Shown piece by piece: positions 1,323 through 20,106 of a DNA stretch of 64,000 nucleotides; position 1 is the stretch's first letter, and every line of letters begins with the position of its first letter. The stretch lies in NCBI GenBank assembly GCA_050261115.1, contig JBLNCY010000003.1, forward strand, positions 19,673 through 83,672. The letters are read 5' to 3'. The translations under genes and the position numbers were made by a program. Origin of the DNA: Methanocella sp. Its GTDB lineage: Archaea; Thermoproteota; Bathyarchaeia; Bathyarchaeales; Bathycorpusculaceae. The notes beneath the pieces are model-generated. The model was not told where the DNA came from and did no database searches. It saw nothing but the letters and a program-made list of their open reading frames with translations.

Positions 1323-2201
1323 ATGAAATTCGGCATCATGACCCGCAACCCAGACGCCTGGAGCAGCACCCAAGTGCGAGAAGCGCTCACCCAACGGGGC
1401 ATACCTTATGAATGTTTTACTTTTCCCCGCCTAGTCGCCCGCTTAGCCTATAAGCCCTACTTTAAAGTTAACAACACAGACATACTCCAAGACCTCGACG
1501 CCTTGATTATCCGCCCCATCGGCAGGGGCAGCCTTGAGGAGCTCGTGTTCCGCATGGACATGCTCTATAAGCTTGAACGCAAAGGCTTCTACATGGTCAA
1601 CCCCCCCACGGCAATAGAGCACTGCGTCGACAAGTATGACATTCTTTCCTTGCTTGAAGACTGCGGGGTTCCCGTCCCCAGAACCCTCGCCACCGAGAGC
1701 GTGAATGAGGCGCTTAAGGCCTTTAATGAACTCGGCGGGGACGTGGTTGTTAAACCCATCTTTGGCAGCCGAGGCCAAGGCGCAACCCGCGTCAACGACA
1801 TCGACGTCGCAGACACCATCTTTAAAGCCATCACATTCCACCACGGCGTAATCTACATGCAAGAATTCGTCGAACATGGCTTTAGTGACATACGCGCGTT
1901 CGTCTTAGGCGACCAAGTAATCGCGTCAATGCGCAGAGTCGCCACTGGCTGGAAAACTAACTACAGCCGAGGCGCACGCCCCGCACCCGAAGAAATCAGC
2001 GGCAACTACAAAGAACTAGCCATCAAAGCAGCCAAAGCGGTCGGATGCAAAGTTGCAGGCGTGGACATTCTTGAAGGCCCATCGGGACCCTGCATCGTTG
2101 ACGTAAACAGTCAACCAGGCTGGAAGGGTCTGCAGCAAGTCACCAAGGTAAATATAGGCGACGAAATCGTCAAGTTTGTCATAAAAGAAATAAAAAAGTA
2201 A
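1323..2201 (+). CDS. RimK-family ATP-grasp alpha-L-glutamate ligase (MptN/CofF-like)
   Basis: Motifs DKY, VPxT, VVKPIFGSRGQG, YMQEFV, DIRAFV, WKTN, GVDIL and DVNSQPGW. Confidence 0.9.
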   Translation: MKFGIMTRNPDAWSSTQVREALTQRGIPYECFTFPRLVARLAYKPYFKVNNTDILQDLDALIIRPIGRGSLEELVFRMDMLYKLERKGFYMVNPPTAIEHCVDKYDILSLLEDCGVPVPRTLATESVNEALKAFNELGGDVVVKPIFGSRGQGATRVNDIDVADTIFKAITFHHGVIYMQEFVEHGFSDIRAFVLGDQVIASMRRVATGWKTNYSRGARPAPEEISGNYKELAIKAAKAVGCKVAGVDILEGPSGPCIVDVNSQPGWKGLQQVTKVNIGDEIVKFVIKEIKK

Positions 2202-2215
2202 ATACCTACTTTTCC

Positions 2216-2782
2216 TTATTTGTAAATGTCAAGTAGGTTACTTTTCTGTAGCACAAGTATTAAAGCTGCACATATCGCAACTGCCGGAATTAGGTATGTT
2301 GCGTTGTAGGTCGCTGAGTACAAAACAGGGTTCATTCCCGCTGGTGCATACATCCCGAAATATATGGCGCCTGAGGTAGTGGAGCATAAGAATCGTGCTG
2401 CTCCACCCACTGCGACACCGATAACAGGTCCAGCGACTGTTAGGTGCCGGAAGAATCCAGCTAACCCTAGACACGCAAACGCCAAGGGGTAGTCAAGGAG
2501 GAACTGGACTGGGTGCACGATAGTAGACGGGGTGACCGCGAGGTCAACGACGCCAAAGACTGCGCCGGCGAATATGCCGATTTTCGGTCCACGTCGAAGC
2601 GCCAGCCAAAAGATAGGCAGCATTCCAAGGTTGATTGAGCCGCCCTGTGGCAAGGCAAAGAACGAGTGGCTTACAAGCGATAATGCGCCTGCCAAGGCAA
2701 CAAAAATTATTATTTCCGCAAGGATTTTGGTTTGGAATATTGGTTTGTAAGGTTCAGACGGTTGATTGGTTTCTCTTTGCAT
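2216..2782 (-). CDS. thiT: Energy-coupled thiamine transporter S-component ThiT
   Basis: PQGGS, ALRRG, HPVQFLLDYP and YSATYNATY motifs; TPP aptamer directly upstream. Confidence 0.9.
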   Translation of the reverse strand: MQRETNQPSEPYKPIFQTKILAEIIIFVALAGALSLVSHSFFALPQGGSINLGMLPIFWLALRRGPKIGIFAGAVFGVVDLAVTPSTIVHPVQFLLDYPLAFACLGLAGFFRHLTVAGPVIGVAVGGAARFLCSTTSGAIYFGMYAPAGMNPVLYSATYNATYLIPAVAICAALILVLQKSNLLDIYK

Positions 2783-2880
2783 TCATGTTTCCCTCCGCCA
2801 GTATTACCTGGTTCAGGTTCACAGGGTCGACAGAAGCTACTGTCCTCTCAGCCGGCTCATTTACCAGCTCCCCAAGAACT
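2781..2880 (-). ncRNA. TPP (THI-box) riboswitch
   Basis: Minus strand reads GGGGAGC...GGCTGAGAG...GACCCTGTGAACCTGAACCAGGTAATACTGGCGGAGGGAA, matching the TPP consensus (CUGAGA, ACCC, GAACCUGA, UAAU, GCG-AGGGA). It lies upstream of thiT. Confidence 0.92.
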
Positions 2881-2904
2881 GCTCCAAAATAAGTCATATA
2901 GCTG

Positions 2905-2919
2905 CATATAGCCTTTTCC
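2905..2919 (-). promoter_or_regulatory. Putative BRE/TATA promoter for the riboswitch-thiT transcript
   Basis: GGAAAAGGCTATATG on the minus strand about 25-30 nt before the aptamer 5' end. Confidence 0.35.
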
Positions 2920-4446: not shown

Positions 4447-4674
4447 AATATTCACCTTTTGAATCAAAGTAGCCCAGCGGTTCTTTTTAGTGTAACTTAC
4501 ACAAACATGTCTAAAACAGTAATATACGCATCCATCTTTAACATATCTAGTAGTTCTGTAAAGCGCAAAAACCCTCTATGTATATCTGTACATATATACG
4601 TACATATTGCAGCCATATTAACAACGTATAACTCACTTCCCACCACTCTACCAGTCAATAGAGGTAATAATAAC

Positions 4675-5334
4675 ATGTCAGAAAGATTCGCCAAAAAGTG
4701 GGAAGCAAAACGGGACGAACAAGCCTTTGGGGACAGAATTAAAGAAGCAGTAAACCCCCCAGGACCACTCAAACCAAGACTCGATTTTGCAGTCCGCCGT
4801 ATCGAACTCCAAGTCCAAAAACTAGACCAAGCAAACGAGAGATTTAGCCAAAGAGACAAAGCGATCTTTGCTCGTATCGTAGACGCCTACACAAAACACG
4901 ACAGCGCACGTGCAAACGTATTCGCAAACGAGTTGGCCGAAGTTCGTAAAATGAGCAAACTCATCATGAACGCCAAACTCGCACTTGAACAAATCACACT
5001 TAGATTACGCACCGTATCCGAATTAGGTGATGTTGTCTCAACCCTTGGTCCAGCAGTCGGCGTACTAAGAAGCGTCCGATCTGGTCTAGTCAGCGTGTTC
5101 CCAGAAGCCGAAAATGAACTCGGTGAAATCGGCAACATGTTAAGCGGCATCATGATCGAAGCAGGCCAAGGCAGTGGCATGACACTAAACTTCGACACAG
5201 TAAACGAAGACGCATCAAAGATTCTAGCCGAAGCAGCAACCGTCGCAGAACAGAAAATCAAAGACAAATTCCCCGACCTACCACCCAGCATGCCATCCTC
5301 TCTTGCTTCCACAGCAGAGAAACAGACCTATTAA
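4675..5334 (+). CDS. ESCRT-III/Snf7 protein (CdvB1/2-like paralogue)
   Basis: Snf7 core (ARANVFANELAEVRK, LEQITLRLRTVSELGD), C-terminal MIM2-like KFPDLPP, no winged helix. GAGGT SD before ATG 4675. Confidence 0.9.
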   Translation: MSERFAKKWEAKRDEQAFGDRIKEAVNPPGPLKPRLDFAVRRIELQVQKLDQANERFSQRDKAIFARIVDAYTKHDSARANVFANELAEVRKMSKLIMNAKLALEQITLRLRTVSELGDVVSTLGPAVGVLRSVRSGLVSVFPEAENELGEIGNMLSGIMIEAGQGSGMTLNFDTVNEDASKILAEAATVAEQKIKDKFPDLPPSMPSSLASTAEKQTY

Positions 5335-5357
5335 GAGTGGAGGAATAGAACACAAAA

Positions 5358-6098
5358 ATGTCTAACTCCAACCTCTTTCTTTCTATCGGTAAACCAATCA
5401 AGAACGAGTACGGCAGAGTAATCGGCAAAGTCGCATCGTTTGCCCTCTCCCCAAACGGTAAATTCGACGCGGTATACGTTGAATTCGGCGACGGCCAATT
5501 CTCCAAACAGCCCATGGAAAGCCTACGGTTCAATGGCGCTGAAATCACATTCGTCTCAAAAATCAAATCCCAAGCCAGCACCCTTTGCGATCACATCCCA
5601 CTCATCTGGCGCAAAGACGAAGCCCTAAAAGACCTGGTTGAAAAGAAGAAAATCACCCCCGAAGTCTACCAGGACCTCCACGCCAGCTTCGAAAACGTAC
5701 TAACACAACTCAAAAAAGAGGCCCAAGTAATCATCGACGAATCCGCAATCGAAATAGAACGATGCCAAGAAGAAATAACCTCACTAAGTTACGCGATCGC
5801 TAACCTAGAAATCGAGCATGAAATCGGCAAAGTTGACGACGAAAACTACAAGATCGCATTTGCCTTACTGCAAGAGACCCTGCGCCGTGCGACCGCTGAG
5901 AAAACAGACTTTGAATTAACCAAAAGCAGACTAAGCAGCGTACTATTAGGTGAACAAACTGCATCACAAAACGCAGCAGCAGCCGCCGCATTAGCTCCGA
6001 AAACTAACAAAATCTACGCTGAAACAGTCAACAACACCGTCACTAAGCTACCTGAGCCTCCAGTCGTCGTCTACGTAAAAGACAAACCAACCCTCTAG
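5358..6098 (+). CDS. cdvA: Cell division protein CdvA
   Basis: N-terminal PRC barrel (IGKPIKNEYGRVIGKV), coiled-coil with LEIEHEIG, and a C-terminal beta-strand PPVVVYV resembling the ESCRT-III-binding peptide. Operon context agrees. Confidence 0.85.
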   Translation: MSNSNLFLSIGKPIKNEYGRVIGKVASFALSPNGKFDAVYVEFGDGQFSKQPMESLRFNGAEITFVSKIKSQASTLCDHIPLIWRKDEALKDLVEKKKITPEVYQDLHASFENVLTQLKKEAQVIIDESAIEIERCQEEITSLSYAIANLEIEHEIGKVDDENYKIAFALLQETLRRATAEKTDFELTKSRLSSVLLGEQTASQNAAAAAALAPKTNKIYAETVNNTVTKLPEPPVVVYVKDKPTL

Positions 6099-19560: not shown

Positions 19561-20106
19561 TTGTTAGTAGAGAAACCTTCTGCAACTTTTCGCATTATCG
19601 AAATCATTCTCGGAATAACCGCGTTGGTCATTGGCGGTTTAGCGTTAGCGTTTCCGGTTGCCACTGTCGTGAGTATTGTGGTGTTCTTCGGAATTGCCCT
19701 AGTTGCCGTTGGTGTTTTAAGGTTGGCTACGGGTGCATCCTCTGATTGGTTGCCCTCTTCCATTAGGCGGTCCAATTCTATAATCGGCATTTTAGCGATT
19801 ATTTTTGGCGCGATTATCCTGTTTGCACCCTTTTTTGCTACGGAAGTGCTTGTCATCTTGATTGGGTTGGGCTTGTTGATTTATGGCGTCGGCAGAGTTG
19901 TAGCCGGTGGGGTCGCTAATCGTTTAAGTGGCGGGTTGCGTGCGGTTTTGGTGGTTATGGGGTTGTTGGTTGTGGTTTTTTCGCTTATTGTAATCTTTTT
20001 CCCCCTCGTGGGCGTTTTAACGTACGCAGTTTTTGTTTCTTTAGCGTTTATTATGATAGGCGTTGATAGTTTAGCATCTGGAATACTCGGTGCAAAGTTA
20101 GTCTAG
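19561..20106 (+). CDS. HdeD/DUF308 family membrane protein
   Basis: Repeated helical hairpins with GIL/GL..P motifs. Confidence 0.75.
   Translation: MLVEKPSATFRIIEIILGITALVIGGLALAFPVATVVSIVVFFGIALVAVGVLRLATGASSDWLPSSIRRSNSIIGILAIIFGAIILFAPFFATEVLVILIGLGLLIYGVGRVVAGGVANRLSGGLRAVLVVMGLLVVVFSLIVIFFPLVGVLTYAVFVSLAFIMIGVDSLASGILGAKLV

Follow-up and report, generated by a model that had tools for sequence, protein, structure and literature searches.

Directly upstream of the gene thiT, in a 64,000-nucleotide stretch of archaeal DNA (the window; positions 19,673 to 83,672 of contig JBLNCY010000003.1, assembly GCA_050261115.1, filed as Methanocella sp. and placed by GTDB in the Bathycorpusculaceae of the class Bathyarchaeia), lies a thiamine pyrophosphate (TPP) riboswitch whose 3' part carries the putative Shine-Dalgarno (SD) sequence of the gene. 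The arrangement is most probably a translational OFF switch on thiT, with the SD built into aptamer helix P4, in an archaeon apparently unable to make thiamine. The element is a genuine member of the TPP riboswitch family: cmscan against Rfam matches RF00059 on the minus strand (2884..2773 in window numbering) over model positions 1-105 of 105, at 61.9 bits (gathering threshold 54.3, E 1e-09). TPP is the sole Rfam family at gathering threshold in the whole window, and the element is the only TPP match of the genome (2.15 Mb, 66 contigs, 94.85% complete). In an RNAalifold alignment of 41 relatives from the same genus or order, compensatory changes occur in 8 of 23 consensus pairs, all within P3 and P3a; P4 (CCU/AGG) and P5 are invariant in 41/41 sequences, and P2 (with one G-U variant), P4 and P5, being paired and essentially invariant with no covariation, are uninformative in this respect. 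The ligand-contact segments, whose roles are known from solved structures, are CUGAGA, forming the pyrimidine pocket, and ACCUGA... with GCG.AGGGA, forming the pyrophosphate arm; all are intact in the window and invariant over the 41 aligned relatives, and the aptamer presumably binds TPP.

The local sequence reads ...CUGGCGGAGGGAAACAUGAAUGCAAAG, and GGAGGG falls within the conserved ...CUGGCGGAGGGAA segment, its A-G-G being the 3' strand of P4 and the two preceding G belonging to the P4/P5 internal loop, while the thiT AUG (2782-2780) begins 8 nucleotides past it. The 16S rRNA of the same genome ends in ...GAUCACCUCCUAAG, containing the anti-SD CCUCC. A crude SD census compared 1746 open reading frames (ORFs) of at least 150 aa, each taken at its first start codon, with 9512 internal ATGs: a 5-nucleotide SD is found at 13.0% of the ORF starts vs 2.3% of the internal ATGs, and GGAGG starting at -15..-12 at 0.8-1.1% of ORF starts per position vs at most 0.2%. 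The GGAGG of thiT, at -14 from the AUG at 2782, lies on this genome-wide peak, whereas its offset from a second, out-of-frame AUG at 2786 (-10) is off the peak; the AUG at 2782 is therefore taken as the thiT start, and the extra upstream AUG is absent from most relatives. The predicted cost of unfolding GGAGG in the free ensemble is 5.2 kcal/mol, as against -9.8 for the SD:anti-SD duplex. An initial annotation, made from the letters of the stretch, had claimed both a full TPP consensus and an SD (GGAGGG) inside its conserved 3' segment, and both claims hold.

Upstream of the aptamer, the promoter is conserved as well. Aligning 100 related loci on the GGGG motif reveals a common gcAAAAc followed by CTAATATg-like boxes, with A/T-only hexamers containing TA peaking at -40..-38 before GGGG (31-37 loci per position vs 1-5 elsewhere); the window's ctatatg stands at -38..-32, and the conserved B recognition element (BRE) and TATA box span about -40..-33. 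The centre of an archaeal TATA box lies about 26 nucleotides upstream of the start site, and transcription would begin some 7-10 nucleotides before GGGG, at about 2883-2880. With the mRNA 5' end thus placed just before the aptamer, a separate expression platform has no room, and the 5' untranslated region (UTR) of about 100 nucleotides would consist of the aptamer alone. In the proposed mechanism TPP would bridge the P2/P3 and P4/P5 arms and lock P4, and the locked helix would withhold the SD, and perhaps the AUG too via a weak P1, from the 30S subunit; without TPP the 3-bp P4 would open and the 5-bp SD:anti-SD pairing would win. Translational occlusion of this kind, also foreseen in the initial annotation, appears well supported by comparison, namely by the identity of the SD with the P4 3' strand, by close start codons in 87 of 101 related loci and by the conserved BRE and TATA box; the direction of control and its translational level are what this layout suggests.

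The comparison draws on a pooled set of 123 loci (43 from an RF00059 search of relatives' genomes, 80 the best ThiT loci), 101 of them distinct and parsable. The motif CGGAGGGA is present in 89 of these, CGUAGGGA in 7 and CGAAGGGA in 5. An ORF of at least 150 aa starts 3-11 nucleotides after GGG in the 87 compact loci, with a mode of 6-8 (7 nucleotides in 25 loci, 8 in 24, 6 in 19 and 9 in 8, more rarely 5 in 4, 10 in 3, 11 in 2 and 3 in 2), and with ATG (40), GTG (34) or TTG (13) as start codon. Among the 14 exceptions are thiT copies with a frameshift or no start, together with 5 loci that lack a close start and belong to the 7 having the bacterial-type CGUAGGGA, with U for G. Other designs exist within Bathyarchaeia, where thiC, thiDN and cytX have long leaders with an SD of their own, so that the compact form is a specific design and not an annotation artefact.

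Some of the related loci have peculiarities of their own. At L015, L024 and L025 (locus labels of this analysis) the thiT copies behind intact aptamers look damaged, with short frames only after the usual start in L015 and L025 and ACG in place of the relatives' start codon in L024; sequencing errors or decaying genes are both possible. At five loci of the same genus or order (L005, L036, L040, L043, L047) a compact riboswitch stands directly before an ORF of 180-182 aa encoding a small membrane protein other than ThiT; these ORFs, and a gene at L009:1149-1589 (minus strand) that looks frameshifted, have a weak match (27-40 bits) to PF07155, the riboflavin-type S-component of energy-coupling factor (ECF) transporters, and the PF07155-like protein is a candidate second thiamine-related S-component. 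The thiC leader L142 (G135:C4), from a genus of the window's family, keeps the compact layout, and by eye its ATG, about 7 nucleotides past GGAGGG, opens some 14 codons, beyond which lie a separate GGAGGT and, about 84 nucleotides downstream, the 432-aa ThiC; the short frame may be a riboswitch-controlled leader peptide. In two other families of the order (L004:705-1451 and L039:1113-1856) ThiT has 247-248 aa, owing to an insertion of about 70 residues, partly hydrophobic, that separates the conserved DYPxAF...GxxG motif from the C-terminal half.

The regulated ORF itself is a true ThiT, scoring 156.6 bits against PF09515 (cut-off 25.8; residues 21-182) and 139.4 bits against the TIGR02357 equivalog (cut-off 108.45), and sharing 41-71% identity with the downstream ORFs of 33 related loci. 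That it binds and transports thiamine is predicted from context, namely from the TPP riboswitch and from the biosynthetic enzymes: ThiC, TMP-TENI (ThiE) and ThiN were not found in the 94.85%-complete genome, Thi4 matches cover only the N-terminal dinucleotide-binding part of the profile, and ThiL is present (235 bits vs a cut-off of 184). At this level of completeness the pattern indicates thiamine auxotrophy short of proof. The search for EcfAA'T suggested in the initial annotation found EcfA, EcfA' and two complementary halves of EcfT at two contig ends: the start of contig C8 (C8:1-1816, L034) holds two tandem ATP-binding cassette (ABC) ATPase genes and the N-terminal half of CbiQ/EcfT (profile 2-110), and the end of contig C11 (C11:5875-7704, L033) the C-terminal EcfT half (profile 109-213), which together would make an ecfA-ecfA'-ecfT operon split by an assembly gap. 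Two more CbiMNQO-type modules in the genome are dedicated metal systems, and there are further S-components; the best PF07155 S-component (106.8 bits) is adjoined by a ThiL/PurM-like gene (TIGR01379 88 bits, below cut-off) at G000:C20:21178-22660. Archaeal transcription terminates at oligo-T runs, and with such a run after its stop codon and a convergent next gene, thiT looks monocistronic (Table 1).

Table 1. Features of the promoter-riboswitch-thiT unit and its downstream flank (window numbering).
Feature	Position	Strand	Remarks
Archaeal promoter	2905..2919	-	BRE-like ggaaaagg 2919-2912; TATA box ctatatg 2911-2905
Predicted mRNA 5' end and leader AGCAGUUCUUG	2873..2883	-	start predicted from promoter position
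TPP aptamer	2773..2884	-	full RF00059 match
P2	GGG 2873-2871 with CCC 2826-2824	-	minimum free energy (MFE) fold and RNAalifold
P3	2869-2863 with 2856-2850	-	MFE fold and RNAalifold
CUGAGA	2851-2846	-	
P3a	2844-2840 with 2833-2829	-	MFE fold and RNAalifold
GAACCUG	2814..2820	-	junction and P4 5' strand; invariant in 41-relative alignment; would pair with the 5' leader when no TPP is bound (proposal)
P4	CCU 2817-2815 with AGG 2794-2792	-	MFE fold and RNAalifold
P5	CCAG 2811-2808 with CUGG 2801-2798	-	MFE fold and RNAalifold
SD GGAGG(G)	2791..2796	-	GGAGGG 2796-2791; GGAGG 2796-2792
Upstream out-of-frame AUG	2784..2786	-	10-codon frame MNAKRNQSTV; probably not used
thiT, ECF-type thiamine S-component	2216..2782	-	188 aa; AUG 2782-2780, stop TAA 2218-2216
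Oligo-T run (T6, T3, T4)	2183..2197	-	candidate archaeal terminator; 19 nucleotides past thiT stop
RimK/MptN-like gene	1323-2201	+	convergent with thiT

Several observations weigh against a functional translational switch. P1, normally part of the aptamer, is weak in the window and not conserved in the genus, so that affinity could be impaired, and the base of the window's P4 has a G.G where the family consensus is a G-U pair. The leader fold is not unusually stable (MFE of the 124-nucleotide leader -34.4 kcal/mol, z -1.04). A 5-nucleotide SD is carried by only about 13% of the crude long-ORF starts, and the SD dependence of thiT is assumed. The related loci are kin, and their counts overstate independent support. 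Near-identical DNA is present in sequencing runs from anaerobic digesters, sludge, bioreactors and compost, and 82-87% of sampled words are present in six RNA-library runs; contigs of up to 92 kb in four of the RNA-library runs make these uninformative on transcription, and no transcript ends were observed.

How P4 would be kept open in the absence of ligand is a further matter. The ThiT-type riboswitch of Bathyarchaeia may, as a tentative proposal somewhat less probable than not, be a minimal two-state switch that uses the first 6-8 nucleotides of the mRNA as its whole platform. Without TPP the 5' end, (C/U)AGUUC or AAGGU(U), would pair with GAACCUG, block P4 and leave the SD GGAGG single-stranded; TPP would displace the 5' end, upon which P4 would form and the SD be locked. 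In the MFE fold of a 139-nucleotide leader (2883..2745; -37.7 kcal/mol), CAGUUC (2881-2876) pairs with GAA(C)CUG (2820-2814) and P4 is removed, the aptamer state being disfavoured by 3.0 kcal/mol of ensemble energy, a gap that narrows to 0.6 with a 5' end at 2880. The conserved 5' flanks of the family, (C/U)AGUUCUU, AAGGUCUC, AAGGUUU, AAGGUAAUUC and AAGGUGCAU, are all complementary to GAACCUG. Over 41 genus/order loci and 60 class loci, respectively, the alternative duplex has energies of -4.30 and -4.81 kcal/mol with the native flank vs -2.18 and -2.42 with shuffled flanks, reaching p<=0.05 at 10/41 and 20/60 loci; in the predicted ensembles the expected alternative pairs number 2.13 and 2.75 (shuffled 0.65 and 0.76), and the probability of P4 is 0.28 and 0.24 (shuffled 0.50 and 0.47). 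The window alone is predicted to have 5.4 alternative pairs and a P4 probability of 0.03.

Controls behave differently for the most part. Among 23 other TPP riboswitches (ThiW, permease, ThiDN, ThiC, others and one bacterial) 18 have fewer than 0.5 alternative pairs, and two depart clearly from this, both of them thiC leaders from the family of the window that bear the same AAGGUUU flank; 12 of 13 actinobacterial riboswitches have at most 0.7. Against the two-state proposal, shuffling the G-rich flank of the window gives duplexes as good as the native one (p 0.4), and GAACCUG is invariant, which makes covariation impossible, the flanking nucleotides showing none with the end of the 5' flank by eye. 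The ThiT-type leaders are, moreover, probably one orthologous lineage, and AAACC-type P1 3' strands resemble GAACC, so that complementarity to both is what an ancestral P1 strand would show. If true, the proposal would give the commonest class of riboswitches a platform not described before, and Archaea a natural design of translational riboswitch, and would mean that a riboswitch can operate with almost no expression platform.

Among the alternatives to occlusion through P4, the one that fares best makes a canonical P1, with the start codon in its 3' strand, the main occluder, TPP hiding the AUG and the SD being secondary; this we consider unlikely, while granting it a real chance. The initial annotation had drawn such a P1, with CATGAAT as a 3' strand taking in the first two bases of the AUG, and the letters and their pairing are there: GUUCUUG (2879-2873) and CAUGAAU (2787-2781) form 6/7 pairs, among them a G.U, the remaining position being a U.U, 6-9 weak P1 pairs are possible in the window, and the MFE fold of the 124-nucleotide leader pairs all of the AUG by joining 5'-GCA(G)UUC with GAAUGC. 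The pairing is nevertheless no better than chance. The duplex of 5' and 3' flanks in the window has -5.3 kcal/mol, matched by 20% of shuffled 5' flanks (p=0.2); native flanks of the 41 genus/order loci average -2.13 kcal/mol and their shuffles -2.57, with 1/41 at p<=0.05; the RNAalifold fold of the 41 relatives contains no consensus P1, and five pairs at the canonical P1 register occur in 0/41 loci. In the ensemble predicted for the 139-nucleotide leader, the AUG can be opened for as little as 0.3 kcal/mol. Elsewhere the alternative is better founded: other Bathyarchaeia lineages have a clean 5-bp P1 (GGUUU/AAACC, GGUCU/AGACC, AGGGU/ACCCU) ending at or next to the start codon, a perfect P1 at the canonical register is found at 9/60 class loci vs 0-1 at most shifted registers, and at one inspected actinobacterial locus (L172, one of the 8 compact loci among 19 parsable ones there) the 3' strand of P1 is strongly paired and extends into the AUG. 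A P1 hiding the AUG is thus true of some relatives and is not a supported feature in the window.

Early termination at a U-run under TPP, or mRNA decay, in place of control over ribosome access, is improbable. The Bathyarchaeia ThiT leader L104 has GGGTTTTTTTCGGCCTTTTT directly past the aptamer (L104:1170-1200), with the start codon about 55 nucleotides further, and L103 has a similar T-run, which suggests a termination-type platform in archaea for this ThiT subclade; thiT of Lactococcus is also under TPP riboswitch control, according to the excerpts available of PMC8862789. In the window, however, the coding sequence starts 8 nucleotides past GGAGGG and no T-run occurs from the aptamer to about +95 of the ORF. 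A sigma-70 and intrinsic-terminator scan found no consensus terminator in the leader, its model being bacterial-type and uninformative here. Least probable of all is an aptamer of altered or relaxed specificity (for thiamine, thiamine monophosphate (TMP) or a precursor) or a decaying relic, for which the degenerate P1, the G.G at the P4 base and the poor discrimination of thiamin, TMP and TPP by P4-P5 TPP variants (McCown et al. 2017, PMC5473149, as excerpted) might speak, but against which stand the intact ligand-contact segments, invariant across the 41 relatives, and matches above gathering in 42/61 genomes, a class-wide conservation hardly expected of a relic.

Occlusion through P4 thus remains the preferred reading, and its element is far from isolated. 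Three sets of genomes were drawn: 61 relatives, an even draw of 151 genomes (79 genera) over the class, and 151 genomes over the phylum. RF00059 is found in 43/61 of the relatives (42/61 above cut-off), including 34/36 of the same genus, and in four other families of the order (labelled f4, f6, f7 and f9; 1/1, 3/3, 3/3 and 1/1); in this draw it was not found in seven more (f2, f3, f5, f8, f10, f11, f12). The class draw has it in 93/151 genomes and 48/79 genera, with up to four copies per genome, and the phylum draw in 30/151 genomes, four families outside the class being positive (8/13, 8/15, 2/5, 2/3). ThiT (PF09515) is present in 73/151 class genomes and, among 14 control genomes, only in B. 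subtilis, T. maritima and L. lactis. Based on 74 ThiT rows above cut-off (3 short second fragments and 6 sub-threshold rows excluded), a TPP match lies at most 300 nucleotides upstream on the same strand for 64/74 ThiT genes. Conversely, 59 of the 123 TPP rows of the class precede genes other than thiT. At 20 such sites the gene encodes ThiW, a cytosine/purine-type permease, ThiC, ThiD-ThiN or a weak PF07155-type S-component, with a few unassigned proteins besides. The class thus has a complete thiamine riboswitch regulon of the classical kind. The portions available of McCown et al. 2017 (PMC5473149) give 79, 6, 1 and 1 riboswitches in four archaeal phyla, and fewer than 100 in all Archaea. 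Our literature search found no account of TPP riboswitches in Bathyarchaeia, and Gupta & Swati 2019 and Rodionov et al. 2002 may list some.

Two statements of the initial annotation fare poorly in the light of this distribution. Its premise that archaeal TPP riboswitches are rare fails for a lineage in which 93 of 151 genomes are positive, and the recent joint acquisition of thiT and its riboswitch that it envisaged is not supported, the pair being class-wide and the bacterial rows lying outside in the ThiT tree. This tree of 81 rows, made by a quick method with its root unknown and bacteria under-sampled, rests on the best 80 of 566 confirmed ThiT relatives (species-representative genomes), almost all titled Candidatus Bathyarchaeia or Bathyarchaeota and 44-71% identical. 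The window's ThiT falls in a starred clade with 13 Bathyarchaeia/Bathyarchaeota records; 5 bacterial rows and one long-branched archaeal row stand against 75 archaeal rows, in a weak split with a support of 82 in the Shimodaira-Hasegawa-like approximate likelihood ratio test (SH-aLRT). An ancient inter-domain transfer of the mainly bacterial ThiT family is possible. Two records, one of Methanofastidiosum and one titled Thermococci, fall within the Bathyarchaeia, and no TPP match was found in the genomes of these two, which suggests that thiT reached them without the switch or that the switch was lost there.

Turning to the genomic surroundings, neighbouring genes in the window encode CdvA, Snf7, RimK/MptN-like and PhoU_div proteins, with a Cdv-type cell-division locus at 4459-6098 (plus strand), where a Snf7/ESCRT-III-like gene (weak, 20.4 bits) adjoins CdvA (34.9 bits). 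These neighbours have a thaumarchaeal look, but the genome is a metagenome-assembled one of Bathyarchaeia and not that of a thaumarchaeote. Contigs from four RNA-library runs match 2181/2240..2917 and then share one unlike continuation beyond 2917, just upstream of the BRE and TATA box; all four also have A for G at 2310. A transcript end at 2917 was considered and rejected, since the same unlike continuation in all four runs marks a strain difference; in a closely related strain, then, the promoter-riboswitch-thiT unit has another neighbour on its upstream side.

A TPP regulon (thiT, thiW, cytX-like, thiC, thiDN) appears in the majority of the genera sampled from Bathyarchaeia, which are abundant and uncultured. 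Its small thiT version, of about 110 nucleotides with an aptamer-only leader and a GGAGG SD, would be convenient for testing the control of archaeal ribosomes by metabolite-binding RNA and is a candidate part for archaeal genetics, while the riboswitch-thiT pair marks these organisms as thiamine scavengers, in line with the lack of detectable thiC, thiE and thiN in the window's genome.

Among known systems, the textbook translational TPP riboswitch, or THI element, is that of E. coli thiM, with which the window's element shares the RF00059 aptamer, helices P2-P5 and the logic of TPP hiding the ribosome-binding site. Unlike thiM, it has no downstream platform or separate anti-SD, its SD being the 3' strand of its own P4; it also has an archaeal promoter, an aptamer at the 5' extremity of the mRNA and a P1 that is weak or absent in the genus. 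Compactness itself is shared with Actinomycetota, whose compact TPP loci have a long ORF starting at most 12 nucleotides past ...AGGGA, some with CGGAGGGA (L172, L183, L184). There, however, 13 parsable controls of compact and non-compact type together have GC-rich 5' flanks that for the most part base-pair with the 3' tail, the AUG of the compact L172 lies within a strong GC-rich P1, complementarity of the 5' flanks to GAACCUG is almost absent, and the downstream genes encode 270-505 aa and are not thiT. The Lactococcus lactis RSthiT, as far as excerpts of PMC8862789 describe it, is likewise a TPP riboswitch immediately upstream of a thiT of the same family (PF09515), but with a bacterial host and a long 5' UTR. 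At L121 (Rubrobacter), the nearest of the bacterial ThiT loci inspected, a hairpin about 40 nucleotides past the aptamer holds a separate SD.

In fungal TPP riboswitches, nucleotides of P4/P5 reportedly pair elsewhere in the ligand-free state. If the two-state proposal holds, the likeness would be that, without TPP, an outside sequence sequesters one of the aptamer strands around P4; the fungal partner is a splice-site region and the output splicing, whereas here the partner would be the mRNA 5' end and the output SD exposure. In the SAM-II and SMK box riboswitches, as in preQ1 riboswitches, the SD is part of or overlaps the aptamer, and the described cases of this type are, to our knowledge, all bacterial. 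The likeness to preQ1 is that the ligand withholds SD nucleotides of the sensor fold with no need of a terminator or separate sequestor (PMC9410914, in excerpt); preQ1, SAM-II and SMK are other aptamer classes with other ligands. In Archaea, the fluoride riboswitch of Thermococcus kodakarensis (Speed et al. 2018, via PMC8241225) is natural and presumed translational, and passages of PMC8241225 (2021) call it the only natural archaeal riboswitch determined experimentally; it belongs to another class and is an ON switch, and the window's element is by comparison known from its sequence. The compact union of aptamer and ribosome-binding site is therefore not new as such, occurring also in bacteria (Actinomycetota); distinctive here is that it comes together with an archaeal promoter, a leader made of the aptamer alone, a degenerate P1 and a conserved 5' end complementary to GAACCUG.

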